In this document: positions 9,262 through 22,505 of the stretch, piece by piece
Position numbering within the stretch: the first letter of the stretch is position 1
Layout of the letters: every line of letters begins with the position of its first letter
NCBI GenBank assembly: GCA_964362685.1
Contig: CAYIFL010000001.1
Span: 1-29,488 of the forward strand
DNA: 29,488 nt
Origin: an uncultured Candidatus Saccharibacteria bacterium
GTDB taxonomy: Bacteria > Patescibacteriota > Minisyncoccia > UBA6257 > UBA9933
Reading direction: 5' to 3'
Notes under the pieces: generated by a model
Told to the model about the DNA's origin: nothing
Database searches by the model: none
What the model saw: the letters and a program-made list of their open reading frames with translations, nothing else
Translations under genes and position numbers: made by a program

Positions 9262-10275
9262 CTATGCCTGAATATTTTTTTCTGGCGCATAGTAAACCAC
9301 CTGGCTCCCCAAGTGATCAAATAAAATCGGGACATAAAGGAGATGTTTTAAGCGCTCCTTCACCGCCTTTTGTTTTTCAGGCGCAACAAAGAAAACCATA
9401 AAGCCGCCTGCACCAGCACCCAAGAGTTTGCCGCCCCAGGCACCGGCGCCTCTCGCCGCTTCGTATATCTCATCTATGGCAGAATTGCTGATTTGCGATC
9501 CTAAACTTTTCTTGATCTGCCAGGCTTCGTGGAGCAGACGCCCAAAATCCTCGAATGCGCCTTTATGCACCACCTCTATTGCCTCTTCAACCATATCCCG
9601 CATAATCCGGAGCGCTGATCCCTTTTCATTATCTGCCGTACTCTTCACTTGCTCTGCAGCGATGTCAGAGGCAGTGCGCGTGAGTCCGGTAAAAAACATC
9701 ATAAGATGGCTCTGGAACGCCTCCATGCGCTTGGTCGTAAGAAGCACCGGATGCACCGCAATAAGATGTGGTCCGCCAAATTCGATTTTATTTAGTCCCC
9801 CAAATGCAGCTGCGGCTTGATCCTGCGACCCGACATTCTCTTTGAGGCGTTCCTGCTCAATATGGATTGCATCGAGCATTAAGCGCCGCTTTGTAACCAT
9901 GCGTCCATCCAGGGCATGAAGCGCATGAAGCAAACCCACCGTAAAGGACGAACTTGATCCCAAACCAGAACGCGCCGGCAGATCTCCCTGATGGTGTATT
10001 TCGATGCCTTTTTGCACATTCAAGAATTTCAGAACCTCCCGCACTGCCGGATGCTCTATTTCTTCCTGTTCCTTCACAAGCTCTATTTTAGACCATACCA
10101 CACGATTTTTATGCTCGAAAAAAGGCGGCAAGTGCCTGCAGGTAATATAACAATACTTATTAATAGTCGCTGAAAAAACCGCACCATTCCGATTTTGGTT
10201 TTGATTATACCATGCGGGATAATCAGTGCCGCCGCCGAAAAAAGAAATACGAAAAGGGGTTCGAGTAATAACCAT
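9262..10275 (-). CDS. hddA: D-glycero-alpha-D-manno-heptose 7-phosphate kinase (GHMP kinase)
   Basis: TRTPFRISFFGGGTDYP, DLPARSGLGSSSSF, GSQDQAAAAFGG, GGKLLGAGAGGF. Confidence 0.9.
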   Translation of the reverse strand: MVITRTPFRISFFGGGTDYPAWYNQNQNRNGAVFSATINKYCYITCRHLPPFFEHKNRVVWSKIELVKEQEEIEHPAVREVLKFLNVQKGIEIHHQGDLPARSGLGSSSSFTVGLLHALHALDGRMVTKRRLMLDAIHIEQERLKENVGSQDQAAAAFGGLNKIEFGGPHLIAVHPVLLTTKRMEAFQSHLMMFFTGLTRTASDIAAEQVKSTADNEKGSALRIMRDMVEEAIEVVHKGAFEDFGRLLHEAWQIKKSLGSQISNSAIDEIYEAARGAGAWGGKLLGAGAGGFMVFFVAPEKQKAVKERLKHLLYVPILFDHLGSQVVYYAPEKNIQA

Positions 10276-12107
10276 TAGTGGATATCGGGCATCGCCGGAT
10301 GTTCCCAGTCGGAAACCGGCTCGACGCCTATCATATTTTCTCTGAATTCTTCACGCGGAAGATACGGGTACATATCTTCAATAGGCGTCTTCCATCCGAA
10401 GATGCGCGGATTATACACATGCTCTTCATAACAATTTACCACACATACAACCGGACCTTCCATAGCCAAGACTTTCCGTATACCTTCCCGGACTCCAGCG
10501 TTATTCCCGATCTGAACCGTGGGCATTCCATACGCCTGGCATATTTTTATAAAATCCGGCGGATTGTATCCCTTTGGCCCGCATGCTTCCATTCTGCCTT
10601 GAAAATTAGTCTTTTGATAAGACTTAGTAATGCCGTAGATGCGATTATCGATAATAAAGGTTTTAAATCCGAGATTATAATTCAGCACCGTCTGAATCTC
10701 CTGGATATTCATATTGAATCCGCCGTCGCCGATCGTCGCAACCACATTGTGTTTTTTATCAGAGCCGAGCCAGGCGCCCATAGCGCCAGCAAAAGAAAAT
10801 CCCATGGGCGAATTGCCATTATTCGTGATGTTCCGCTGGCCGCGCTTTGTTTCAAAAGAATGATTTGAGGCAACGATATTGCCGCCGCAATCACCTACCA
10901 AAATATCATTTGGTCCCATCTCTTCGGAAAGAATCCGAAAGAAATAATATGGATGCACATTAGACCTATCCAAGCTGGTGTACTCCGGCAAAACCGGATC
11001 ATATTTTTCTTTCCAGTGCATCACTTTTTTAGTCCATGCGGAAATATCCGGCAAGGACACATTCGCTATTTTATCAAAAAGACGCCGCAGAAAGATTTTC
11101 GCGTCGCAAAATACGTTTTCATCAAAAGGAATCTGCTGGAGTTTTTTCTGGAGGAGTGACGGATCAACGTCAATTACCCATTTTTTGGCGCCGCGCGCGA
11201 ATGTTTGCAAATTGCCGCCGGTGATTCTCCCGGAGATACGGCTGCCTACCGCCAAAAGCAAATCAGCATTTTGAAGGCCGAAATTACGCCCCCTTCCTCC
11301 ATAGGTGCCTACCCTGCCGCCATACCACTGCCAATCCGAGGTTACTGCATCGAGCGCATTCCACGTTGGAAATACCGGCATCTTCAATCGCTCGCCCACT
11401 GCCCATAACTCCTCCATTGCGCCCGCGATCCGCACGCCGCCGCCAATGAGCATCACCGGACGCTTGGCACTCATTAAATCCTGGAGCAATGAATCGATTT
11501 TTCTATCGATATATAAAAAATTATACGTGGCCCTCGCGGCTTCCGCATCAAATCCCGTGAGCTTATCTGGCTCGATTAATTCCTTGGCAATATTTAAGGG
11601 GAGATCAATAAGCACTGGCCCTGGCCTGCCTTCGCGCGCATGAAAAAGCGCCTTCTGCAACTCATATTTAATACTTGCGGCATCTTGAATCATCACCGCG
11701 TACTTAGTGATTGGCTTTACAATACTCACAATATCGGTTTCCTGAAAGCCAACCTGCCGCACTTCAGGATCAGGCCGCAAAAATTGCGAATTGACTTGCC
11801 CCGTAATAAAAAGGCACGGCACAGAGTCATAATAGCAATTGCCGATAGGAGTGACCATATTCATGCCTCCGGGACCGCTTGTTGCAATAGTTACGCCGGG
11901 CTTGCCGCTTATTTTTGCGTAACACTCCGCGGCAAAACCCCCTCCCTGCTCGTGCATGACCGCGACATAGCGCGTTTTATCGGTTTTCGTAAACGCGTCA
12001 ATAAGATCGCCGATCGCGGAACCATACACCACAAACATATCCGTAATGCCCAAATCAGCCAGATACTGAATTATAAAATCTGCCACGCGCATTTTTCCAG
12101 AAGACAT
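10275..12107 (-). CDS. ThDP-dependent acetolactate-synthase-like enzyme (YerE-like sugar C-C ligase candidate)
   Basis: Catalytic HEQ, ATSGPG, FAD-domain ADLLLAVGSR, ThDP motif GDGGFNMNIQE...DNRIYG. TAATG stop/start coupling to hddA. Start placed at MSSGKMRVADF (12107). Confidence 0.88.
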   Translation of the reverse strand: MSSGKMRVADFIIQYLADLGITDMFVVYGSAIGDLIDAFTKTDKTRYVAVMHEQGGGFAAECYAKISGKPGVTIATSGPGGMNMVTPIGNCYYDSVPCLFITGQVNSQFLRPDPEVRQVGFQETDIVSIVKPITKYAVMIQDAASIKYELQKALFHAREGRPGPVLIDLPLNIAKELIEPDKLTGFDAEAARATYNFLYIDRKIDSLLQDLMSAKRPVMLIGGGVRIAGAMEELWAVGERLKMPVFPTWNALDAVTSDWQWYGGRVGTYGGRGRNFGLQNADLLLAVGSRISGRITGGNLQTFARGAKKWVIDVDPSLLQKKLQQIPFDENVFCDAKIFLRRLFDKIANVSLPDISAWTKKVMHWKEKYDPVLPEYTSLDRSNVHPYYFFRILSEEMGPNDILVGDCGGNIVASNHSFETKRGQRNITNNGNSPMGFSFAGAMGAWLGSDKKHNVVATIGDGGFNMNIQEIQTVLNYNLGFKTFIIDNRIYGITKSYQKTNFQGRMEACGPKGYNPPDFIKICQAYGMPTVQIGNNAGVREGIRKVLAMEGPVVCVVNCYEEHVYNPRIFGWKTPIEDMYPYLPREEFRENMIGVEPVSDWEHPAMPDIH

Positions 12108-12116
12108 AGCAACTAT

Positions 12117-12145
12117 AATGTATGCCCGATTGAGTAGTGTGTCAA
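12117..12145 (-). promoter_or_regulatory. sigma70-type promoter of ThDP-hddA-hddC-GT4-rml operon
   Basis: TTGACA-17 nt-TACATT, ending 9 nt before ATG 12107. Confidence 0.65.
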
Positions 12146-12160
12146 CAGGGAAGGATTTGT

Positions 12161-12742
12161 TTAGTTCTTCTTGGTAACTTTTACCTCGAGTCCTAAATGC
12201 GGCAATGCGCGCAAAAGCGTAAGGCACGCGTCCCACTGGTCTGATTCGCCTTTAAGCATATAGGCAATCCATTCATCAAGCGGCATTTCTAAAAGCTCCA
12301 TTTGCTCGCTTGGGTCTAGTTTCGGCTCTCCTACTTTTTTACAACCGGTTGCAAGAAAACTATAAAACTTGGTGGTTGAATTTCTTGAGTTAATAAATCC
12401 TGATCCTAAACTAATCACTTCTTTTGGGTCATAGCCGGTTTCTTCTTTTAATTCCCGCTTGATAATTTCTTCGGGCAATTCACCTTTGAAGCTGCCTTGG
12501 CCCCCGGGCGTTTCAATCATAATCTGGCCTGATCCCTGTTTGTATTGGCGAATTAAAATAACTTTGCCGTCTTCGGTAATGGGCAAAACCGCTGACCACG
12601 ACGGCTGTTCGTTAAAATAGAAGTCGGTTTCCTTGCCGGTGTGATCCCTGAATCGTTGTTTATCTAAACGCTTGCCGTATCCTTCGGCTAGTGTTTCCGG
12701 CTTCCCAATTTTTTCCCAGGGGACAATGCTCATATCGTCCAT
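12161..12742 (-). CDS. Nudix hydrolase A (ADP-ribose/NDP-sugar pyrophosphatase-like)
   Basis: VILIRQYK...ETPGG and Nudix box GQGSFKGELPEEIIKRELKEETGY. The true start may be the Met at 12733. Confidence 0.88.
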   Translation of the reverse strand: MDDMSIVPWEKIGKPETLAEGYGKRLDKQRFRDHTGKETDFYFNEQPSWSAVLPITEDGKVILIRQYKQGSGQIMIETPGGQGSFKGELPEEIIKRELKEETGYDPKEVISLGSGFINSRNSTTKFYSFLATGCKKVGEPKLDPSEQMELLEMPLDEWIAYMLKGESDQWDACLTLLRALPHLGLEVKVTKKN

Positions 12743-12776
12743 AGTATTTGAAATTAAAAAGATTTCAAGCTAATGT
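12741..12776. promoter_or_regulatory. Overlapping divergent promoters sharing a palindrome
   Basis: Plus strand TTGAAA(12748)-17-TAATGT(12771); minus strand TTGAAA(12768)-16-TACTAT(12746). The two -35 boxes are the arms of TTGAAAT-N7-ATTTCAA. Confidence 0.5.
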
Positions 12777-12789
12777 AGTAACACTATCT

Positions 12790-13290
12790 ATGACACACAT
12801 TACCTTTAATGACCTAACAAAACTGCGCGAAGAGTTAAGGGGTAAAACCATTGTGTTTTGCTCTGGTGGTTTTGATTTAACACATGCGGGACACGTCTTA
12901 TTCTTCGAGGACTGTAAAAAGCATGGAGATATCTTAGTTGTTGGCCTTGGTTCTGATGCGGCACGGCGGGGTGAAAAAAAAGATGATGGACGGCCTATTA
13001 TAAACGAAAAGATGCGCCTTAAAATGGTTTCATCTTTGAAACCAGTTGATTATGCTTTTATAATTGAGCATTTAGCGGAAACTCACAAACTTGATCCACT
13101 TAACAAAATTTTTGAAGTCTTACAACCAGATGTATATGTGATAAATGCTGATGCATCACATATCCCATACAGAGAAGACCTTGTAAAAAAATTCGGCGCA
13201 AAACTTATTATTTTAGACCGCTGGTGCCCGCCGGAATACGATGCAATTTCAACAACTAAACTGATTGAAAAAATTAAAAAACTGCCATAA
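12790..13290 (+). CDS. Cytidylyltransferase-like / HldC (RfaE domain II)-like nucleotidyltransferase
   Basis: IVFCSGGFDLTHAGH (HxGH), LVVGLGSD, GRPII, VDYAF, ISTTKLIEKI. Start placed at ATG 12790. Confidence 0.85.
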   Translation: MTHITFNDLTKLREELRGKTIVFCSGGFDLTHAGHVLFFEDCKKHGDILVVGLGSDAARRGEKKDDGRPIINEKMRLKMVSSLKPVDYAFIIEHLAETHKLDPLNKIFEVLQPDVYVINADASHIPYREDLVKKFGAKLIILDRWCPPEYDAISTTKLIEKIKKLP

Positions 13291-13326
13291 AAAAGAGGCG
13301 GTTCCGATAAAATCGGAACGCGCCTC
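13289..13326 (-). terminator. Intrinsic terminator downstream of Nudix B (between convergent genes)
   Basis: gaggcg-gttccgat / atcggaac-(g)-cgcctc 14-bp stem with one bulge, followed by a U6 tract on the minus strand. Confidence 0.8.
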
Positions 13327-13345
13327 ACTCAACAATGTTCGCTGA

Positions 13346-13918
13346 CTAATGCAGCCTTTTGAGGTCGTAGCCCAGATGCGGCAACGCCAGAAGTGTTGTC
13401 GCGATAGACTTTGAGTCAGAAACCTCTCCTTCCCAAATTTTCTGAATCCAATCAGAAATGGATAAGGTCATCCTTTCCAGGATTTCTGTTCTTTTCAACC
13501 GCGGCTCCGCAACTTGACGGCAACCTGTTGCCAAAAAAGGTACGTAGTGATTAACATCCGTTGCTGGATCAAAATACGCCTTAGTGGGACCGACCTGAAA
13601 CAATCGGTCCGCGGTAAAACCCGTCTCATCTCGAAGCTCCTTGATCGCAACCTCCTCGGGCTTATCGACAAGTGTGGGATTCCCGCCAGGGAGTTCGAAG
13701 ATGAACTGGTTAGCGGCAATACGGAATTGCCGAAGAACTATTACCTCATACTCTGGAGTTACAGGAAAGATGATAATAGGTGCTTTCGCGCCGCCCCACA
13801 AAAGGAATTTCTCGACACCGTGAGAAAACTCAAAGCTCCTTCGGAATACCCGCTTTCCCCATTCCTCTATAATGAGTTCATCTTCTCCGACAACTTTCGG
13901 AGCCACTAATTCACTCAT
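13346..13918 (-). CDS. Nudix hydrolase B (variant Nudix box)
   Basis: VIVLRQFR...FELPGG and box GNPTLVDKPEEVAIKELRDETGF. AAGGAGG at 13931-13925 supports the start at 13918; the upstream ORF-track extension crosses a terminator. Confidence 0.85.
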   Translation of the reverse strand: MSELVAPKVVGEDELIIEEWGKRVFRRSFEFSHGVEKFLLWGGAKAPIIIFPVTPEYEVIVLRQFRIAANQFIFELPGGNPTLVDKPEEVAIKELRDETGFTADRLFQVGPTKAYFDPATDVNHYVPFLATGCRQVAEPRLKRTEILERMTLSISDWIQKIWEGEVSDSKSIATTLLALPHLGYDLKRLH

Positions 13919-14001
13919 CATCCGCCTCCTTCGTGCAAAGGTTGAAAAGCCTCTTCCTGGAGCTGCCCCATTCAAACATATCGACGGCTTCATTGTCAAA
14001 C

Positions 14002-14039
14002 AAAAAACGGGGCTTCGACTCCTCCATGCCAAAACCCCG
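14002..14039 (-). terminator. Intrinsic terminator downstream of radical SAM gene
   Basis: cggggttttggc-atggagga-gtcgaagccccg 12-bp stem (G-U pairs) followed by TTTTTT. Confidence 0.75.
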
Positions 14040-14041
14040 CG

Positions 14042-14069
14042 TCGATGTTCAAGGTTCAATACTCAATGT
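14042..14069. repeat. Four degenerate 7-bp units immediately after radical SAM stop
   Basis: tcgatgt tcaaggt tcaatac tcaatgt. Confidence 0.5.
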
Positions 14070-15710
14070 TTATTGGTGCCGCGCGCTCATCGGCACAAGC
14101 CGTGCTTGTTCGCTCTCCGACAGCTCCCAGAAGGTCCGGCCGCCTAGAAGATCGCGCTTGAGCGATTTCTGCAGGTGGTCAATCCAAAGATCGATATTGC
14201 GGATAGCCACCGGACCGAGCTTTGGATCCTTGAGTAACCGTTCTCGGTACTCCGGCCGCTTGTAGTAAGCGGCGTGTGCCCAATCGCGGAACGCGATGAT
14301 CTGCTCAGTAGTCAAAGCGTCGCCATCGTAGTGTGGCTCGCTCTCTTCCAAGTATTGGGCATGCCCCGGCCAGCCTGGACCACCAAGCCGCTCAGGCAAT
14401 GGATATCCCTTTGTCTTGGCTTCTCGGTAGAGTTCTGACCCAGGAAGTGCTTGCGCGCAGTAGAAATTGCCGTAGGTGCCGTTTAGATCGCAGGCAAGCT
14501 TAAAGGTCGCTTCAATGGACTCCACGGTCTCGCCGGGAAGCCCGAAGATATAGTTCAATCCGCCTTCAATACCCGCCTCATGCATTCGCCGAACCACATC
14601 GTAAATGGTGTCTTCGCTAAACTTCTTGGCTTGACGAGACCGAACGGTGCTGTTCGCCGCCTCGATACCAAGCCCAAGCCAGCGGAAACCAGCGCTGCGG
14701 AGTAGATCGAGGTACTGCGGTTTGCAGGTGTCAATCCGGAAATAGCACCAGAAGTTAAAAATATCCCGAGCTTCCGGAAAAAGCTGGGTGAGAAGCTTGG
14801 CGATTTCCAGTGGGTGCGAACCCAACCCGAACATTTCGTCTGGGATCTTAAAAAACCTGACCCCATACGTTCTGTAGAGGTACAGAACCTCTTCCACGAA
14901 GAGCTTCGGCATAAGGTGCCGAAAGCTGTTCACGCCTGGCTTCAGTGCTCCGATCTGTTGCAATACCTGCTCGCCTTCGCGGTAGGGCGGCTGAATATTA
15001 CAGAAGTTACAGTGGAACGGACACCCCTCTGCTGAATAGGGATTGGCGTACGGCTCTGGAAGAATCTGCCCTTGTTCGTCAGTCACCCGATAGAACCGAT
15101 GCCAATGATGCGGCCGATACTTCCGCGGATCCATATACTTCCAGCCAGGAAGCGCTGGCTCTTGATTGAGGTCGATGAGCGGCGCTTCAGGACCATGCCC
15201 GATGCCGCTGTTATCCCGGTACCACAAGGACCGCACCTTATGGATATCTACCGGTCGTCCCCCTGCCTTCGTTGCCGCAAGGAGATCCTCCACGGTAATG
15301 GGCCCCTCGCCACCGCAGACGAAATCCACGGCTGGCTCGGTCTCGAGAGTATAAGCAGGAATCGCCGAGGGGTGTGTACCCGTGAGTATGATTGGGATTT
15401 CAGGCGACATCGCCTTGATCGCTTCGGCGAACTCCCGCGCAGATGGCATAGTCTGCGTGCTTGCCGAAGGGTTGTACCCGTAAACCGGCAAAACCACGAG
15501 GCGGGGATGTGCCGCACACACTTCTTCTGCCATCCGTTGTGGCGTCCAGTCCAGGACATTCGCATCAAAAAGATCCATACTCCACTTGCGGCGTTCGCCG
15601 TAAGCGAGCATGAAACGCGCCTTAGCAGGCGGCTCAATTGCATCTGGCACCCCGCCTCTAATATCAAGTACGTTCATCGGAATAACGAAAAGCACGTCCA
15701 ATCGGCTCAT
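14070..15710 (-). CDS. Cobalamin-binding radical SAM protein (class B methyltransferase-like)
   Basis: N-terminal B12-binding-like region (ILTGTHPS...DFVCGGEG), CPFHCNFC (CxxxCxxC), IPDEMF, GIEAAN, YIFGLPGET. SD AAGGAG 5 nt upstream. Confidence 0.9.
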   Translation of the reverse strand: MSRLDVLFVIPMNVLDIRGGVPDAIEPPAKARFMLAYGERRKWSMDLFDANVLDWTPQRMAEEVCAAHPRLVVLPVYGYNPSASTQTMPSAREFAEAIKAMSPEIPIILTGTHPSAIPAYTLETEPAVDFVCGGEGPITVEDLLAATKAGGRPVDIHKVRSLWYRDNSGIGHGPEAPLIDLNQEPALPGWKYMDPRKYRPHHWHRFYRVTDEQGQILPEPYANPYSAEGCPFHCNFCNIQPPYREGEQVLQQIGALKPGVNSFRHLMPKLFVEEVLYLYRTYGVRFFKIPDEMFGLGSHPLEIAKLLTQLFPEARDIFNFWCYFRIDTCKPQYLDLLRSAGFRWLGLGIEAANSTVRSRQAKKFSEDTIYDVVRRMHEAGIEGGLNYIFGLPGETVESIEATFKLACDLNGTYGNFYCAQALPGSELYREAKTKGYPLPERLGGPGWPGHAQYLEESEPHYDGDALTTEQIIAFRDWAHAAYYKRPEYRERLLKDPKLGPVAIRNIDLWIDHLQKSLKRDLLGGRTFWELSESEQARLVPMSARHQ

Positions 15711-15801
15711 GACTTCTCCTTTGCCCTACAGCGATTCAGCGGCTTGTACCGCTTACGATTTAGTTATGCGTTATAGAAAGTTGTCAAAGCAAGCTACAGC
15801 A

Positions 15802-15830
15802 ATTGTATGCGCTAGAAACAAAATCGTCAA
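15802..15830 (-). promoter_or_regulatory. sigma70-type promoter of radical SAM gene
   Basis: TTGACG-17 nt-TACAAT, giving a leader of about 85 nt. Confidence 0.7.
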
Positions 15831-15831
15831 A

Positions 15832-16788
15832 TTATGAGATGGGAGTTTTATCTTCCGGGCTAACCTTGATTGGGGCAAAATCAACCGGCATTCTTTTTTC
15901 CACCGCTTCTCGATTCATATTTTTTATATACCCCACAAATTCACAATTAATACTTGCCACTAAGCTTCCCATCTCTACGGCATCAAGAAATGATCCTCCC
16001 TCATGCCGTTTTACCAAATACCCCGCAGCAAAGGCATCGCCAGCGCCGGTGGTATCTACGGCCATACAAGGAATCACAGGAAAAAGCAAATACTCATATA
16101 ATGGCGTGAGATGGGCTACTAAAACTCCCCGGCTCCCTAGAGTAATTATTACCTGTCCGGCGCCTGCATCTAAAATCTTTTTTGCACAATCTACAACATC
16201 GGAAATATTCACTAATTTTTTTTGAAAAAGAACCTCGCACTCGTTTTGATCCATTTGCACGATATCGGCATACTTTAAATAGGTTGCCCAATCCGGCCAT
16301 CCGCGGTTATACATCTTGCCCCCTTTGTCCGCGCCAAATGGCTTCCGGTGTACATCCACATACACAAGCGCTTTGCTATTTTGCTTTACTTTTATAATTG
16401 CCTCTGGGTCAATATCATCAATATTTCCAAAATTAAATATGACAATATCCACATCGTGGATAAAAGGTTCAATATGCTCGTACGTGGTTGGCTCCATTTG
16501 AACTTTTCTTGTTACAAAATGTTTATTCCCTTCGTGATGATCAGTACCTGCTGGATTTATAAATATGCCACTGGTATTTACAAATGGATAATTCTTTCGA
16601 TAAAATTCTTTTACTTCATCTATATCCTCTTTACCAACACTGCCAACAAAATAGATTTTTGAATCATTGGTAAATAAAGCAGCAAAAGGTGCGATTGCGC
16701 TTTCAGTCATTCCGCCCCAGCCGCTATAGGTTCCTGCATCAGAATGCACGGTGTGGCGGAGCATAGATCCTACTAAACAAATCTTCAT
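15832..16788 (-). CDS. PfkB/ribokinase-family carbohydrate kinase
   Basis: VYVDVH, VIITLGSRG, AVDTTGAGDAFAAGY (PfkB signature 2). Confidence 0.9.
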   Translation of the reverse strand: MKICLVGSMLRHTVHSDAGTYSGWGGMTESAIAPFAALFTNDSKIYFVGSVGKEDIDEVKEFYRKNYPFVNTSGIFINPAGTDHHEGNKHFVTRKVQMEPTTYEHIEPFIHDVDIVIFNFGNIDDIDPEAIIKVKQNSKALVYVDVHRKPFGADKGGKMYNRGWPDWATYLKYADIVQMDQNECEVLFQKKLVNISDVVDCAKKILDAGAGQVIITLGSRGVLVAHLTPLYEYLLFPVIPCMAVDTTGAGDAFAAGYLVKRHEGGSFLDAVEMGSLVASINCEFVGYIKNMNREAVEKRMPVDFAPIKVSPEDKTPIS

Positions 16789-16795
16789 TGTTCAA

Positions 16796-16825
16796 AAAGT
16801 ACCATAGATATTCTATTCCCGTCAA
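16796..16825 (-). promoter_or_regulatory. sigma70-type promoter (extended -10) of pfkB-like gene
   Basis: TTGACG-18 nt-TACTTT, with TGG directly before the -10; ATG 7 nt later. Confidence 0.6.
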
Positions 16826-16833
16826 TTGCCAAT

Positions 16834-16871
16834 AAAAAAAGAGGACCGAGCGAGTGGTTCGCCCGATCCTC
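16834..16871 (-). terminator. Intrinsic terminator downstream of IMPase B
   Basis: gaggatcgggcga-accac-tcgctcggtcctc 13-bp stem followed by T7. Confidence 0.85.
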
Positions 16872-16889
16872 CGCAAGGTTCAGCTCTCG

Positions 16890-17687
16890 CTAGGAGCCGC
16901 AGATACTCATGAGCTCCACCCAGATCTCTCGGTTCCTTGCGAGGATAACCGGGATCTTTTTCTGTTTATACTCAACAGTGCTTCCATCCCAACGAGAAAC
17001 CATACAGCCAGCCTCTAAGGCAAGCAGCTCAGCCGCACCAAGGTCAAAGGGCGTCGCGCCTCCATGTACGTAAGCGCCGATTTTCCCCTCAACCAATAGA
17101 AGCGTGGTCCCGGTAAACGAGTGTACTTCAAGAAGAAAACATCCACGCGATTGCACTTTCTGTGCTATCGCCGGATTTTCTACTGCACCGATACTCACAA
17201 AAAGCTCGTTCGCGAGGTCTCCGCCTCGAGACGTCACTATCCGCTCTCGGTTAATGAAAGCGCCTCTGCCACGTCTTGCGTGCGCGAAAACGCCTCTTGC
17301 CGGAAAGAATATCAAGCCGAGCTCCGGAACACCGTTCAAGGTAAGCCCTGCCGAAATGGAAAAGTAATCCATCCCAGCCGCATATCCGGCAGTACCATCA
17401 ATTGGATCAATGAGCCACTCGTAGCCAGAACTGGAACGCTCTTCTGCGCCTTCTTCGCCGCGGATGCCATGATCCGGCCAGTGCGTCCGAAGACACTGAT
17501 GTATGCGCTCTTCGATTAACGTATCAGCTCTTGTGACGAGATCTTTTGCTCCTGATTTGATAAATCCCTTGAGCGACTGTTCCATCCTGCCGGACTGGCG
17601 AATAGCCAGTGCTTCCCTGCCAAGTTTTGAGAAAAGATCGCCAAGCACCTCAAGCGCCTCACCTGAGCCAAAGCCTTTCGTTGCCAT
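16890..17687 (-). CDS. Inositol monophosphatase-family phosphatase B
   Basis: DLVTRAD, GEE, WLIDPIDGT, PFDLGAA...EAG. GGAGG 7 nt upstream of ATG 17687 (MATKG). Confidence 0.88.
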   Translation of the reverse strand: MATKGFGSGEALEVLGDLFSKLGREALAIRQSGRMEQSLKGFIKSGAKDLVTRADTLIEERIHQCLRTHWPDHGIRGEEGAEERSSSGYEWLIDPIDGTAGYAAGMDYFSISAGLTLNGVPELGLIFFPARGVFAHARRGRGAFINRERIVTSRGGDLANELFVSIGAVENPAIAQKVQSRGCFLLEVHSFTGTTLLLVEGKIGAYVHGGATPFDLGAAELLALEAGCMVSRWDGSTVEYKQKKIPVILARNREIWVELMSICGS

Positions 17688-17764
17688 CTCCCATCCTCCC
17701 TGCGTGTGTACCAACGCGTAATTGCATTGGTAACCAACCACTCATGTCAAAAAGTCCAGCCCGT

Positions 17765-17792
17765 AGCTTACCACAGATTTCTTAATTTGCAA
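17765..17792 (-). promoter_or_regulatory. Putative promoter of IMPase B
   Basis: TTGCAA-16 nt-TAAGCT, with TGG before the -10. Confidence 0.5.
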
Positions 17793-17804
17793 GGATAATT
17801 TTTC

Positions 17805-18593
17805 TTAAATCATTTGTTGAATCTCATCTGCTATGTCTTTATTCCTTGCAAGTATAGCGGGGATTCTCTTCTGTTTAAAATCAATCCGCCCACCATCTGT
17901 TTGAAAAACCGCGCATCCAGCCTCCTCCGCAATTAACACTGCGGCGCCTAAATCAAAAGGAGACGCGCCGCCATGCAAATAAAAACCTATTTTACCCTGA
18001 ATGAGCAAGAGCGTGCTTCCAGTAAAGGAGTGAATCTCTAAAATCATACAACCCAACGAACGAACTTTTTCGGCTATTTCTGGCTTTGTAATAGAATCTA
18101 CGCTTACAAATAACTCGTCCGCAATGCGGCCGCCTTGGGGCACTACAATTTTTTCTCCGTTTATAAAAGCACCCTTGCCGCGGCTCGCATGCGCAAAAAT
18201 ATCATTCGCAGGAAAGTAGAGTGCGCCGAACTCCGGAATGCCGTTTTTAATAAGTCCGACTGAAATCGAGAATAAATCCATTCCGGCTGCAAAACGATGG
18301 GTTGCGTCTATTGGATCGAAAAGCCACTCGTATCCTGAAGAAGATTGCACTTCCGCGCCTTCTTCTCCACGAATGCCGTGCTCGGGCCAATGAGTCCTCA
18401 CGCATTCAGTTAAAAATTTCTCTGAAAATAGATCTGCTTTAGTTACTATTTCCTTTACAGCTGATTTTTTGATAGTGGGATCTAATCTTCCCTCCTCGCG
18501 CATTGTAAGTATCTCTCTGCCTATGTTAGGCAGAAGATCCTTAAAAATTTCAAGGGCTTGTTCATGGTTAAAATTTTTTCTAGATTCATCCAT
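17805..18593 (-). CDS. Inositol monophosphatase-family phosphatase A
   Basis: EIVTKAD, GEE, WLFDPIDAT, PFDLGAA...EEAG; colinear with IMPase B over its whole length. Confidence 0.88.
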   Translation of the reverse strand: MDESRKNFNHEQALEIFKDLLPNIGREILTMREEGRLDPTIKKSAVKEIVTKADLFSEKFLTECVRTHWPEHGIRGEEGAEVQSSSGYEWLFDPIDATHRFAAGMDLFSISVGLIKNGIPEFGALYFPANDIFAHASRGKGAFINGEKIVVPQGGRIADELFVSVDSITKPEIAEKVRSLGCMILEIHSFTGSTLLLIQGKIGFYLHGGASPFDLGAAVLIAEEAGCAVFQTDGGRIDFKQKRIPAILARNKDIADEIQQMI

Positions 18594-18595
18594 AG

Positions 18596-19780
18596 TTACA
18601 GTTTTAAAACTGCTTGCTTTATGCTTTTCAATGCTTTCCCAATATTCTCAATCGAGTTCGCATACGAGAATCTTAAATACCCTTCGCCGTAACTGCCGAA
18701 TGCAATGCCGGGCAAAACCGCAACTCCTGCTTTTTCCAGAATATAGTCAGCCATTTTTTTTGAGGTTATGCCAAATGATTTAATATTCGGAAAAACATAA
18801 AAAGCCCCTTTGGGCACTTGGCACGTTATTCCGGGAATTTCATTCAAACCCTTCACGATAAAATTCCGTCTTTTTTCAAATTCTTTTACCATACTTGAAA
18901 CCTCCTTTTGAGAACCATTTAGGGCCTCGATGCCTGCCCATTGCACAAAAGTTGTGGTACACGCTATAGAATTTACAAGCAGATTTTCTATGTGAGGCAT
19001 AAACCGCTCGGGCATTATAAAATATCCCAGGCGCCAACCAGTCATCGCATAGGTTTTTGAAAATCCATCAATCAAAATAGTCCGCTCTTTTACCCCTGGC
19101 AAACTATAAAAACTATGAAAGGGCAAATTATCGTAAATAATTCTTGAATAAATTTCATCACTTATAACCCAGGCATTTGTTTTTTTGATAAGCTTCGCGA
19201 TCATGGCTAAATCCTCTTTGGGCAATACCCCGCCCGTAGGATTACTCGGAGAATTTAAAATAATTAACTTTGTTTTTTTCGTTATTGCCTTTTTAAATGC
19301 ATACAAATCAAAACTAAAATGATTTTCTTCTAAAATCGGCACAGGCTTTGGCGTGCATCCCAAAAAATCAACCATATTTTCATACACCGGAAATCCTGGA
19401 TTAGGAAAAATCACCTCATCACCTTTTTCTAAAATCGCGGTCATGGCAAGATAGATCGCAGTCTTCGCGCTTGGCGTAACCACAACTTCTCCCGGACGCA
19501 CCGAAACGCCGCGTGTTTCTGTAATGTACTCTGCAATCGCTTGCCGCAGCTCTTTTATGCCTAAGGTTGGCGTATATTTGGTTTTTCCTTGCTCGATTGC
19601 CTTAATGCCGCTTTCGCGAATGTGCTCTGGCGTTTGAAAATCCGGCTCGCCGATTTCCAAATGGATTATGTGTTTGCCTTTCCGCTCGAGTTCCTGCGCT
19701 TTTGCTAAAACCGCATACGCTGCCTCGCCTTTCATAACGGCTGTACTGCGCGACAAGCCCGGAAAATGTTTTTTTACCAT
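18596..19780 (-). CDS. PLP-dependent aminotransferase class I/II (aspartate aminotransferase-like)
   Basis: LEIGEPDF, NSPSNPTG, SDEIY, GFSKTYAMTGWRLGY (Schiff-base Lys), YLRFSYA. Confidence 0.93.
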   Translation of the reverse strand: MVKKHFPGLSRSTAVMKGEAAYAVLAKAQELERKGKHIIHLEIGEPDFQTPEHIRESGIKAIEQGKTKYTPTLGIKELRQAIAEYITETRGVSVRPGEVVVTPSAKTAIYLAMTAILEKGDEVIFPNPGFPVYENMVDFLGCTPKPVPILEENHFSFDLYAFKKAITKKTKLIILNSPSNPTGGVLPKEDLAMIAKLIKKTNAWVISDEIYSRIIYDNLPFHSFYSLPGVKERTILIDGFSKTYAMTGWRLGYFIMPERFMPHIENLLVNSIACTTTFVQWAGIEALNGSQKEVSSMVKEFEKRRNFIVKGLNEIPGITCQVPKGAFYVFPNIKSFGITSKKMADYILEKAGVAVLPGIAFGSYGEGYLRFSYANSIENIGKALKSIKQAVLKL

Positions 19781-19786
19781 AACGTA

Positions 19787-19815
19787 ATACTTGCATCAAA
19801 CGGCTCTTGTGTCAA
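19787..19815 (-). promoter_or_regulatory. Putative promoter of aminotransferase-IMPase A operon
   Basis: TTGACA-17 nt-AAGTAT, preceded by TGc (extended -10); ATG 6 nt later. The -35 overlaps the upstream terminator U-tract. Confidence 0.45.
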
Positions 19816-19850
19816 AAAAAGAAGGGCCTGCCACGATACGTGACAAGCCC
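19814..19850 (-). terminator. Intrinsic terminator downstream of Zn-ribbon gene
   Basis: gggcttgtcacg-tat-cgtggcaggccc 12-bp stem followed by ttc-T7. Confidence 0.8.
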
Positions 19851-19878
19851 CATGGCGTCGAAGAGGTATTTTCCCCTT

Positions 19879-20208
19879 TTAGGGCGTTATCCATGCCTCT
19901 TCAAGGGATATCCCTCTTTCGATTTCCACCTCGTAATCAGCGAGAAGACGCACCCTGTGAGCGCGCTTGAAAAACGGCTTTAAGTTCCTGTGGGTATTGA
20001 ATCCATACTTACCAAAGATGTCCTCCACCCAAAAAGATCTCCCGCAACTTGCGCATCCCACATGTTTTACGAGATAGAAATGCACGTTCATCGGAAAGAA
20101 TCCCGGCATCTGTATAACAGTAGGAATACCGCCGCCACAGTCCGGGCACTTCCCTTCGATATAGATTAAGGAAAATTCCACGAGAGCCTTGGTCTTTAAA
20201 CATTCCAT
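19879..20208 (-). CDS. Hypothetical small Zn-ribbon protein
   Basis: CPDC...CASC pairs; GAGGTG 5 nt upstream of ATG 20208; own promoter and terminator. Confidence 0.7.
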   Translation of the reverse strand: MECLKTKALVEFSLIYIEGKCPDCGGGIPTVIQMPGFFPMNVHFYLVKHVGCASCGRSFWVEDIFGKYGFNTHRNLKPFFKRAHRVRLLADYEVEIERGISLEEAWITP

Positions 20209-20275
20209 CAAAGCACCTCTCTTTTTTACTACGAGTCAGTTGCGCCCTATGCACTTTTCAAGTTTCAAGATTTAT

Positions 20276-20304
20276 AAGATACCATAAGACCTGCAAAATA
20301 ACAA
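20276..20304 (-). promoter_or_regulatory. Putative promoter of Zn-ribbon gene
   Basis: TTGTTA-17 nt-TATCTT, with TGG before the -10. Confidence 0.4.
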
Positions 20305-20336
20305 TTGATCAATAATTAAAACCAACCACATAGCAG

Positions 20337-21272
20337 TTATATATTCGCAAACCCGTTCCGTTTTATAACTTTATACCCCTTGATGAGTTCGGCAATACCT
20401 TCCTGCATCGAAACTTGCGGCATAAAACCGGTTTTCTCGATTTTTTCATTCGAAACAATGTAGTCGCGCTTGTCCGGATCCTCACCAATTGAAGCTTCCA
20501 CAAAATGGAAATCAGAAACTTGTTTTTTTATTTCTTCGCAGAGTTCCCGCTTACTTAAATTCGCATCCGAAAGCCCGACATTATACGCTTCATCTTTCAT
20601 CTGTTCAAAATTATTCATTGCATGCATAAACGCCCGCGCCACATCCCGGATATGGATATAATTCCTCTTAAAGTCAGCTTCGAATAAAACGACAAAGCGA
20701 TCATTTACCGCACGGTACACAAAATCATTAACCAAAAGATCCAGGCGCATCCGAGGACTTACGCCAAACACGGTTGCAAGCCGAAACACAACCGCATTGC
20801 CTGCGGACAAAATGGTTTTCTCTGCTTCAACTTTTAAACGGCCATAGAGCGAAATCGGATTCAAAGGACTTTTTTCATCGCAGTACTGGCCTTTTTCACC
20901 AACACCGTACCCACTATTCGTATTCGGATATAAAATCCGCTGATTGTCTTTTTTTAAAGCTAAAATGGTTTTTATGGCATCAAGGTTAACGCTTGCTGCG
21001 GCTAGAGGGTCCCTATCGCAGGCTGGCGCACCCACAATCGCGGCCAAGGGAATAATATAATCAACGCCGTCCAGATTTTGCGCGATTGTTTTCACACCCC
21101 GCACATCCCCCCGCACAATCGTCAGAGTCTTATGGTGGCAGAGATCCAAAAGCGGCGCCTGATTGTACATAAAGTTATCAAGCGCAATAACCTCATGTCC
21201 CATGTTCAGCAATTCGCCGGTCAAAACCGAACCAATATAACCTGCGGCGCCGGTAATAAGAATTTTCGACAT
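20337..21272 (-). CDS. NAD-dependent SDR, Cj1427-like GDP-D-glycero-D-manno-heptose C4-dehydrogenase
   Basis: GAAGYIGS, IIPLAAIVGAP, YPNTNSGYG.GEK, YGRLK, FRLATVFGVSPRMRLDLLVNDF.YRA, IGEDPDKRDY.VSN, FAN. These match the Campylobacter jejuni Cj1427 sequence as I recall it; not verified by alignment. Confidence 0.8.
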   Translation of the reverse strand: MSKILITGAAGYIGSVLTGELLNMGHEVIALDNFMYNQAPLLDLCHHKTLTIVRGDVRGVKTIAQNLDGVDYIIPLAAIVGAPACDRDPLAAASVNLDAIKTILALKKDNQRILYPNTNSGYGVGEKGQYCDEKSPLNPISLYGRLKVEAEKTILSAGNAVVFRLATVFGVSPRMRLDLLVNDFVYRAVNDRFVVLFEADFKRNYIHIRDVARAFMHAMNNFEQMKDEAYNVGLSDANLSKRELCEEIKKQVSDFHFVEASIGEDPDKRDYIVSNEKIEKTGFMPQVSMQEGIAELIKGYKVIKRNGFANI

Positions 21273-21326
21273 AAATAAAAAATTAAAGATAATAAATAAT
21301 AAATTGTGTTTATTATTTTTTATATA

Positions 21327-22505
21327 TTATTTATCATATCCTACGCTATCTAACACGATATTTGAAATAAATGCAATATCCTCTTCTTTAAGCGAAGGGT
21401 TATTGGGCAAAAACAAGCCCGCATGATGAATTTGGTCAGCTACTGGCGCTGAAAACTTGCCGTACCGCTCAAACCAAAAGGGATGGAGTCCCAGATTGCC
21501 CGCGGAGAAAATCCGGGTTTCAATGCCGTTATCCTCAAGCGCGCGCACGATCTTTCTTCTCTCTTCAATATCATGAGCTACCATGCCGAAATGAATTGAA
21601 CAAATCACTGAATCCGGATCCGCTTGTTGATACCTAAATCGGTCGCCCAAAAGTTTTTTATAGAGAAAATGGTTTTCATGCCTGCGCTTCACAAGCCAAT
21701 CCATCTTATCAATCTGGCGAATGCCTAAAAATGCGCCGAGATCTGTTGAACGAAAATTAAATCCCGGCTCATAGAACACAAAGGGCGAATGAAAATCATC
21801 AATCTCGTATTTTCGTATGAGCTCTTCTTGTGCGGCTGTATCCAGATCCTTGCCCCAGCCATGGCTCCGCGTCATTAAGAGAAGATCGTTAAAAATTTTA
21901 TCATCCGTAGAAACCGCGCCGCCTTCAATGGTAGAAATCTGGTGGCCAAAGTAAAAGGAAAAACTGCTCATATCGCCATAGGTACCTACCTTTCTGCCGC
22001 GGTACAACGATCCCATTGCCGCGCACGCGTCTTCCAAAAGAAAAAAACCGTATTTTTCTTTGAGCGCCATCATCTCCTCCATTTTATGCGGCACGCCCAA
22101 CACTTGCACCAAGACCACGGTAGACGGCTCATGCTGTTTCAATAATTCTTCTAGATGGCCGAGGTCTAAACCAAACGTATCCGGATCCGCCTCGCACATA
22201 ATGGGCTCGAAACCGAATTGGATTGCGGGCGCAACAGTCGTTGCCCAACCCACGCTTGGCACAATCACCTTTTTATTTTTGAGACGACGAGATAAAAGAA
22301 GGACGTAATACATCAGGAGATTCGCAGATGATCCGGAATTCACGAATACCGAATGCTGTCTCCCGAGCCAATCACTCCATTTTTGCTCAAATTCGGACGT
22401 AAGGCGATGCTTCGTAAGCCGCGGGTTGGTTTTAAGCCAATCAATCAACGCGTTAATATCGCCCTGATCAATTGTATCTTCCGCCAAATAATATTTTATA
22501 TCCAT
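21327..22505 (-). CDS. DegT/DnrJ/EryC1/StrS-fold PLP enzyme, ColD-like NDP-4-keto-sugar 3-dehydratase
   Basis: VNSGSSANLL, LLEDACAAMG, SFSFYFGHQISTIEGG (His at the usual Schiff-base Lys), RSHGW, GFNFR. Confidence 0.8.
   Translation of the reverse strand: MDIKYYLAEDTIDQGDINALIDWLKTNPRLTKHRLTSEFEQKWSDWLGRQHSVFVNSGSSANLLMYYVLLLSRRLKNKKVIVPSVGWATTVAPAIQFGFEPIMCEADPDTFGLDLGHLEELLKQHEPSTVVLVQVLGVPHKMEEMMALKEKYGFFLLEDACAAMGSLYRGRKVGTYGDMSSFSFYFGHQISTIEGGAVSTDDKIFNDLLLMTRSHGWGKDLDTAAQEELIRKYEIDDFHSPFVFYEPGFNFRSTDLGAFLGIRQIDKMDWLVKRRHENHFLYKKLLGDRFRYQQADPDSVICSIHFGMVAHDIEERRKIVRALEDNGIETRIFSAGNLGLHPFWFERYGKFSAPVADQIHHAGLFLPNNPSLKEEDIAFISNIVLDSVGYDK

Follow-up and report, generated by a model that had tools for sequence, protein, structure and literature searches.

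The window analyzed here is the entire 29.5-kb contig C1 (CAYIFL010000001.1) of a metagenome assembly, and its middle holds an alternation of two kinds of gene: GC-richer single genes, each preceded by a Shine-Dalgarno (SD) sequence and followed by a terminator, and AT-rich genes that lack an SD. The assembly comprises 515 kb in 65 contigs, is 80% complete, and has a GC content of 0.45. The host is a Patescibacteria genome of ~0.6 Mb whose family label is Wolfebacteria; relatives of the same family have genomes of 0.5-0.9 Mb, and several are labelled Candidatus Wolfebacteria or Patescibacteria (taxon names of relatives are the labels on their database records). The samples that bear the contig are groundwater metagenomes; the runs listed for this sequence were groundwater DNA runs, with no RNA run among them. 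Open reading frames (ORFs) and starts come from a crude caller (490 ORFs in the assembly), and terminators come from heuristics.

Nearly every window ORF of at least 80 amino acids (aa) with a Pfam match is of a glycan or nucleotide-sugar biosynthesis type. The families include rml-type genes, GT4/GT2/GT9 glycosyltransferases, nucleotidyltransferases, a GHMP kinase, and a thiamine-diphosphate enzyme, together with a DegT-like protein, an epimerase, and several methyltransferases. The window is a nucleotide-sugar surface-glycan locus, probably of the heptose type. It has a conserved frame, with the GT2, DegT-like, and epimerase genes at one side and the GHMP kinase and nucleotidyltransferase genes at the other, and the units of alternating GC occupy its variable middle (Table 1). 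The GC-richer units are those of Nudix B, a radical SAM protein, IMPase B, and a Zn-ribbon protein.

Table 1. Features of the interleaved stretch, in window coordinates (CDS, coding sequence)
Feature	Position	Strand	Details
Zn-ribbon unit	19823-20219	minus	SD GAGGTG 20214-20219; CDS 19879-20208, 109 aa, CxxC...CxxC
Zn-ribbon terminator	19823-19851	minus	13-bp stem and T-run
AT-rich two-gene block	17805-19780	minus	class I/II aminotransferase 18596-19780 and IMPase A 17805-18593; gap of 2 nt; no SD
IMPase B unit	16840-17792	minus	SD GGAGG 17695-17699; CDS 16890-17687; leader of ~70 nt
IMPase B promoter-like site	17765-17792	minus	TTGCAA-16-TGgTAAGCT; coordinates read by eye from the sequence
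IMPase B terminator	16840-16872	minus	14-bp stem
pfkB-family sugar kinase	15832-16788	minus	AT-rich, no SD
Radical SAM unit, B12-binding	14007-15830	minus	SD AAGGAG 15716-15721; CDS 14070-15710; leader of ~85 nt
Radical SAM promoter	15802-15830	minus	TTGACG-17-TACAAT
Radical SAM terminator	14007-14040	minus	
Nudix B unit	13301-13931	minus	SD AAGGAGG 13925-13931; CDS 13346-13921 (or 13918)
Nudix B terminator	13301-13319	minus	weaker, 8-bp stem
HldC-like cytidylyl/adenylyltransferase	12748-13290	plus	AT-rich flank gene
Nudix A	12161-12742	minus	AT-rich flank gene

An original prediction, made from the letters of the window, had claimed a clear SD for each of these four genes, and all four are indeed present at 3-7 nt from an ATG. 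The spacing is 5 nt for the radical SAM gene and the Zn-ribbon gene, 7 nt for IMPase B, and 3 or 6 nt for Nudix B, depending on which of its two ATGs is used. Two starts have to be corrected accordingly: Nudix B begins at 13921/13918 rather than at TTG 14059, the start of the longest ORF, and IMPase B begins at 17687, downstream of the start of its longest ORF. The claim that each unit has its own terminator likewise stands, since the top four terminator-like hits on the minus strand of 12000-21500 directly follow these four genes. A separate -35/-10 was claimed for three units, and three do have a promoter-like site; the radical SAM and IMPase B units have conserved σ70-like promoters, and those of Nudix B and the Zn-ribbon gene are not firmly placed. 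In the leader of the radical SAM gene there is also a small hairpin (GCGG-N6-CCGC, about 15739-15752) that matches no Rfam family and whose stems are kept in one relative (L027) and partly in another (L118). A riboswitch or known leader RNA, such as a cobalamin element, was considered and rejected, as the window has no match that attains the gathering score of any Rfam family. Upstream of Nudix B, one unitig of run X6 lacks 79 bp from the stretch that separates the Nudix B SD from the radical SAM terminator (window 13909-13989), which may be a population variant affecting Nudix B expression.

The composition of the units is less uniform than their signals. The four 60-nt GC counts made by hand in the original prediction (32, 36, 20, and 23 of 60) were recounted with identical values. 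Ranked as whole genes among the 490 ORFs of the genome, the radical SAM gene has a GC of 0.558 and a GC at third codon positions (GC3) of 0.623, both at the 98th percentile, and IMPase B has a GC of 0.529 (97th percentile) and a GC3 of 0.519 (82nd). Nudix B (GC 0.481, 81st percentile; GC3 0.495, 68th) and the Zn-ribbon gene (GC 0.470, 67th percentile; GC3 0.545, 91st) are only mildly raised. The true GC outliers are thus the radical SAM gene and IMPase B, two of the four units. The interleaved genes lie in the low tail: the cytidylyltransferase-like gene has a GC of 0.368 (3rd percentile) and a GC3 of 0.287 (1st), and GC and GC3 are 0.410 and 0.354 for pfkB, 0.432 and 0.376 for IMPase A, and 0.413 and 0.403 for the aminotransferase. 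Nudix B and the Zn-ribbon gene therefore look GC-rich mainly because their neighbors are unusually AT-rich. In amino acid usage, Nudix B, radical SAM, and IMPase B stand at the 89th-96th percentile for G+A+R+P and at the 3rd-9th for F+Y+M+I+N+K.

Across the genome, the native style is that of AT-rich genes without an SD, tightly packed or coupled, and SD motifs are no commoner before starts than before internal ATGs. An in-frame SD at 4-9 nt is nonetheless found for 46 ORFs, versus 17 in a frame-shifted control, and 16 of the 490 ORFs have both an SD and a terminator. The two signals tend to go with the same genes (odds ratio 8.7, P = 7e-8). Genes with either signal are GC-richer, and the mean GC is 0.513 for those having both versus 0.449 for those having neither. 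The original prediction had named a genome-wide abundance of SD- and terminator-bearing genes as a point that would tell against it. SD-bearing genes prove to be rare. Strong terminators, with 46 in the genome, are common, so it is the SD sites that are unusual and not the presence of a terminator as such. The class to which the four units belong numbers about 30 genes, roughly 6% of the genome and for the most part orphans or accessory genes, and its GC-richest members are mostly without a Pfam family or are accessory enzymes. Two further GC-rich SD genes are matched in none of 40 relatives; one encodes an O-methyltransferase, and the named homologues closest to it are from Binatia, Myxococcales, and Nitrospirae, outside the candidate phyla radiation (CPR), and some members of the class elsewhere in the genome are probably from other phyla.

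Ordinary compositional scatter would attribute the GC differences to enzyme-specific amino acid usage and the pairing of SD with terminator to chance. Such scatter could accommodate Nudix B and the Zn-ribbon gene, which fall within the bulk of the genome GC distribution, as well as the high genome-wide frequency of terminators and the part of the radical SAM excess that lies at first and second codon positions. It is made very improbable by the extreme GC3 of the radical SAM gene, by the genome-wide association of SD, terminator, and GC, by the local clustering (at least three SD-plus-terminator genes among the nine genes of this stretch, P = 0.0025), and by the conservation of the pattern in relatives, described below. 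Two other compositional causes were also considered. A high-expression codon signature was rejected, as the ribosomal-protein operon (C35) has no SD and an ordinary GC3 of 0.45-0.51. In bacteria, the reported effect sizes of GC-biased gene conversion are far below the 0.15-0.25 GC3 excess of these genes.

The 16S rRNA 3' end could be read in eight relatives, of which six belong to the same family and two to the same order, and it lacks an anti-SD in every one (L120-L123, L124, L125, L127, and L129, from G002, G026, G008, G027, G006, G007, G001, and G017). These ends read ...GTGCGTGGA(A/T/C)(C/A)AATTAAA(C/T)T, also seen as ...GGAACAATTAAATT, in place of the usual bacterial ...GGATCACCTCCTT. A subgroup of Parcubacteria that lacks uL1 is described as having lost the 16S anti-SD (Tsurumaki et al. 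2022, RNA 28:1041, PMC9297842). No 16S rRNA is present in our assembly of 65 contigs, and uL1 was not found in this genome at its 80% completeness. From the 16S tails of the relatives, the missing SD enrichment, and the failure to find uL1, we infer that this genome is also without an anti-SD. An orphan anti-SD fragment or hidden piece of 16S was sought in the genome and none was found; the CACCTCCTT hits inspected lie within coding sequence or are reverse complements of SD sites. A CsrA-type reader of GGA motifs was likewise rejected, as no CsrA was found in the 80% complete genome. The SD sites at G000:C6:9605, 9802, C16:4903, and C51:2876 extend to AAGGAGGTGA, which is perfectly complementary over 10 nt to the canonical 16S tail, a tail since lost by the relatives.

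How the SD-less genes might be initiated was considered as well. At 214 confident starts (G000), T occupies position -1 in 61%, and the upstream region is 65-75% A/T without enrichment of G; a T at -1 in an A/T-rich context may be a Kozak-like replacement of the SD. Motifs that could pair with the changed 16S tail (AAUUAA) and so stand in for the SD are only weakly enriched near starts versus further upstream (AATTAA, 8 versus 1; TAATTT, 10 versus 2). Leaderless mRNAs as the general native mode were rejected, since -10-like hexamers peak only weakly at 6-7 nt from the ATG. For pfkB itself, a promoter-like pair TTGACG...TA(C/T)TTT is conserved upstream of the gene (window 16789-16830; L027:3030-3074), and because its -10-like hexamer (TACTTT here) ends 7 nt before the ATG, the pfkB mRNA may be leaderless.

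The arrangement recurs in close relatives. Four independent metagenome assemblies (L027-L030), whose DNA is ~75% identical, share the order Zn-ribbon, aminotransferase, IMPase A, IMPase B, pfkB, radical SAM, and they keep the alternation of GC together with the SD sites and terminators of the Zn-ribbon, IMPase B, and radical SAM units; Nudix B lies outside these contigs and has its only close counterpart in L118. That gene order and signals are both shared at ~75% DNA identity indicates that the layer is old and predates this genome, contrary to the idea of a recent addition. A check of synteny for presence and absence gave a corresponding result: the Nudix A slot differs in L118, but the Zn-ribbon, IMPase B, and radical SAM genes are all present in L027/L029 and Nudix B is present in L118. 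An assembly chimera or a contaminated bin could in principle interleave two organisms in so fragmented a metagenome bin. This is extremely improbable here. In two groundwater samples, unitigs of even depth run across the junctions pfkB/IMPase B, IMPase B/IMPase A, and aminotransferase/Zn-ribbon, and the four assemblies and L118 share the arrangement. It is neither a chimera nor a recent insertion.

Within this shared order, the two kinds of gene have diverged to different extents. Compared with L027, the backbone genes encode proteins that are 82-88% identical (aminotransferase 88%, pfkB 85%, IMPase A 82%) and have fourfold-site distances of 0.72-0.85, with silent-site distances of 0.72-0.75 for the aminotransferase and IMPase A. 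IMPase B is only 55% identical in protein with a silent-site distance of 1.5, and radical SAM is 73% identical with a distance that falls with that of IMPase B in the range of 1.4-1.5. The silent-site divergence of these two GC-rich genes is thus about twice that of the interleaved genes, by rough methods and at distances (near 1.5) that approach saturation. In sliding comparisons, DNA identity is 0.75-0.88 outside but only 0.52-0.73 within the IMPase B unit, and the 3' half of the radical SAM gene reaches just 0.48-0.73; the drop coincides with unit boundaries. The Zn-ribbon counterpart in L029 is 26% identical (silent-site distance 0.82, from 8 sites only), and it keeps GAGGTGC and the terminator. 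This protein is a near-orphan, with 2 small homologues of ~32% identity among 1.8 billion representatives.

The radical SAM promoter, its leader, and the SD block AAAGGAGA(A/G)GT are kept in three lineages, L027 and L118 among them, and the promoter and terminator of IMPase B are also conserved. In L118, the radical SAM protein is 85% identical, the flanking genes are 73-85% identical, and Nudix B is 43% identical; the slot, SD, and leader of Nudix B are kept, and the DNA alignment stops ~40 nt into the gene, whose body has been replaced or has diverged. The Nudix A slot (window 12161-12742) is filled in the same contig, the closest of the relatives, by an unrelated 255-aa ORF without a Pfam hit (L118:3759-4526), flanked by cytidylyltransferase-like and thiamine-diphosphate enzyme genes that are 73-81% identical.

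In the original prediction, the GC-richer genes were a second layer added beside resident homologues; in its strict form, this would make them recent xenologues from GC-richer, SD-using donors. The unusual composition, SD sites, and terminators of the units, set against their neighbors, would agree with this, as would the apparently imported O-methyltransferase mentioned above and a radical SAM subtype that is nearer to other CPR classes than to its own family. The two IMPases do not bear it out. IMPase A and IMPase B are 58% identical, and in a tree they form sister clades (support 100/100) that exclude all other sequences, with B branches 4-7 times longer. Their sole close relatives among 5.8 billion proteins are each other's orthologues, the next homologues being at most 43% identical, and one B-type IMPase stands alone in a different gene context. 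The pair is thus closer to each other than to any outside sequence, as expected of tandem paralogues arisen within a lineage, and the sister relationship argues that IMPase B comes from duplication or exchange inside a narrow clade, not from a distant xenologue. Nudix A and Nudix B are 30% identical, and each type is also present in versions of the locus from other CPR bacteria.

The AT-rich neighbors fare no better as residents. Orthologues of IMPase A, IMPase B, and pfkB were not found in 40 relatives, so IMPase A and pfkB are as accessory as the GC-rich genes, and they are composition outliers themselves, on the low side; the AT-rich genes are not demonstrably resident. With the nearest homologues outside the clade at 43% or less for IMPase and 61% or less for radical SAM, no recent donor is visible either. 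Taken with the recurrence of three of the four units in the ~75%-identical relative, these comparisons largely refute recent acquisition from such donors, which we consider improbable. The part of the original prediction that survives is the layer itself, distinct by composition, initiation signal, transcript architecture, and evolutionary rate; its addition beside resident homologues is not supported.

In several same-family genomes (L031-L037) the epimerase gene, a radical SAM gene, and the GHMP kinase gene adjoin. Relative to these, window 9262-21272 has additional genes, ~10 kb in all, that separate the epimerase from the GHMP kinase (Zn-ribbon, aminotransferase, two IMPases, pfkB, two Nudix, cytidylyltransferase-like, and thiamine-diphosphate enzyme genes). 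In same-family genomes, frame genes are 59-80% identical to those of this locus and the radical SAM protein, of another subtype, is only 38-42% identical, even where it stands between frame genes that are 66-80% identical. Homologues of the subtype found here (subtype I) occur at 52-85% identity in many metagenome contigs. The nearest among metagenome-assembled genomes (55-61%) are labelled Saccharibacteria, Nomurabacteria, and Parcubacteria, and they adjoin the same cytidylyltransferase-like and Nudix A genes. By percent identity, the radical SAM protein is thus nearer to those of other CPR classes than to those of its family, and the frame genes show the reverse. Although it was predicted to be an added gene, radical SAM emerges from these comparisons as part of the core of this type of locus, with a position that is conserved from one CPR lineage to another.

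Its signals recur with it. Among 17 CPR loci, an SD-like motif precedes the radical SAM gene in about 14 and a terminator follows it in most, and the gene is GC-richer than its flanks in 16 (mean excess 0.062; r = 0.75 with flank GC). The same association of features is seen elsewhere. In G017, a genome whose 16S lacks an anti-SD, SD motifs show no excess across 225 ORFs (12 versus 11 in the control), and the two GC-richest genes carry AGGAGG or AAGGAG together with terminators. One of these two (G017:C4:152940-154148) encodes a 403-aa protein without a Pfam family and has orthologues in G004, G019, G009, G024, G026, and G027. Of these seven copies (L147-L153), six have an SD 6-9 nt upstream, namely that of G017 and five at 42-52% identity; the seventh, 27% identical, has a GGAGG motif further upstream. 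A terminator is present in most copies, and the set includes genomes whose 16S lacks an anti-SD. In L040 (1-17524), part of an 808-kb chromosome labelled Saccharibacteria, genes with a GC of 0.41-0.46 lack an SD, and three GC-rich genes (0.51-0.59), radical SAM among them, each have an SD and a terminator.

Such persistence is what would be expected of a native expression class kept by selection. The units would then be vertically inherited, and their leadered mRNAs, GGAGG motifs, GC-rich bodies, and terminators would be functional; the motif would be recognized through an anti-SD that the genus has kept or by a reader independent of the anti-SD, and the fast divergence would reflect diversifying selection on glycan tailoring enzymes. 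Consistent with this, the radical SAM promoter, leader, and SD block are kept in the three lineages while silent sites differ by 0.8-1.4, the motif, terminator, and GC excess of that gene recur across the CPR loci, the 403-aa gene keeps its SD in genomes without a 16S anti-SD, and three of the four units lack outside donors. Selection at the protein level would not, however, be expected to produce the twofold synonymous divergence from the interleaved genes, and members of the class are patchy or absent among relatives. Moreover, there is no known mechanism for reading GGAGG without an anti-SD, with neither CsrA nor an Rfam match found here, and the ribosomal-protein genes share neither the composition nor the SD. 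A native class of this kind is the main rival reading, possible but less likely than not.

The reading that we favor, with about even confidence, is that the units are portable, moron-like accessory genes exchanged among CPR bacteria in the variable middle of a laterally mobile glycan locus. The middle contains two kinds of transcription unit, AT-rich genes without an SD and GC-richer single genes with a leader, an SD, and an intrinsic terminator. The latter would circulate gene by gene among CPR lineages, bringing their own expression signals and occupying fixed slots in the glycan locus, and the alleles at those slots would be exchanged, or would diverge, independently of the backbone.

Several observations weigh against portability. 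Nudix B and the Zn-ribbon gene are merely mildly GC-rich, and the excess in the radical SAM gene looks partly intrinsic to the gene. No donor can be identified for IMPase B, Nudix B, or the Zn-ribbon gene, whose relatives were found only in a narrow clade, and the searches turned up neither mobility genes nor boundary repeats nor close viral homologues. Lineages whose silent sites are saturated still share the SD blocks and promoters; if the ribosome truly has no anti-SD, selection accounts for such conservation more readily than repeated recent arrival does. The break in L118 falls in the gene body rather than at a promoter or terminator, a poor fit to the transfer of whole units, and the near-saturation of the silent-site distances, noted above, blunts the twofold difference in rate. 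A narrower possibility, which we consider unlikely though less so than recent acquisition, is that in CPR bacteria without an anti-SD, GC-rich single-gene accessory units, including these four, keep a GGAGG-type SD under purifying selection.

As to vehicles of transfer, neither Pfam matches of the ORFs nor scans of the window revealed an integrase, transposase or insertion sequence, phage gene, or tRNA, in agreement with the original prediction, which had seen no integrase, insertion sequence, or attC. No attC-like or shared repeat family was found at unit boundaries, and cassette boundary repeats, attC sites, and target-site duplications were rejected as explanations, the repeats in the window being short and at chance level only. 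A phage origin was also rejected: viral contigs hold radical SAM homologues of 35-39% identity only, and no IMPase relatives.

The CPR makes up a large share of bacterial diversity, and to our knowledge almost nothing is known about its translation initiation and gene acquisition. At this locus, two styles of initiation stand side by side, and composition, signals, and evolutionary rate switch together at unit boundaries. If the units are portable, gene flow among CPR genomes and in their glycan loci could be followed by a simple signature in the sequence. If an SD is maintained without an anti-SD, the function of an SD independent of the anti-SD becomes a testable question, and purifying selection on these sites, if true, would imply a non-canonical reader or a dedicated mode of initiation and a separately translated set of genes. 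On a practical level, gene callers that assume a single model of the ribosome-binding site will mis-call starts here, Nudix B and IMPase B being examples.

Several known systems resemble parts of this arrangement. Relative to the Parcubacteria without an anti-SD, this genome shares the 16S tails seen in its relatives and the failure to find uL1; the residual GC-rich class with a conserved canonical SD is a difference, unmentioned in the portions of PMC9297842 available to us, and a literature search found nothing on such a class in these bacteria. Integron cassettes are also gene-sized accessory units in series, but they typically lack an SD, terminator, or promoter of their own. The units here have their own SDs and terminators, and two have a conserved promoter, with no integrase and no attC-like or shared boundary repeat. 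Compared with a horizontally acquired islet, the atypical composition is present (97th-98th GC percentile for radical SAM and IMPase B), and mobility genes and insertion-site repeats are absent from the window. Phage morons, as described by Hendrix and colleagues, are reportedly single genes of deviant composition, independently expressed from their own promoter and factor-independent terminator within a conserved block. The units share with them the single genes, the terminators of all four, and the conserved -35/-10 of radical SAM and IMPase B. They differ in that the host block is a chromosomal glycan locus rather than a prophage, without phage genes or close viral homologues, and in that the traceable units are present in the nearest relatives, so that it is sequence that varies and not presence. 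Finally, mosaic O-antigen and capsule loci have atypical GC and undergo gene-sized recombination, and they share with this locus a conserved frame, a laterally exchanged middle of mixed composition, a patchy distribution, and slot-by-slot replacement. Unlike those loci, this one lies in a CPR genome without SD usage, and its gene-by-gene alternation tracks a switch in both the translation-initiation signal and transcript architecture.

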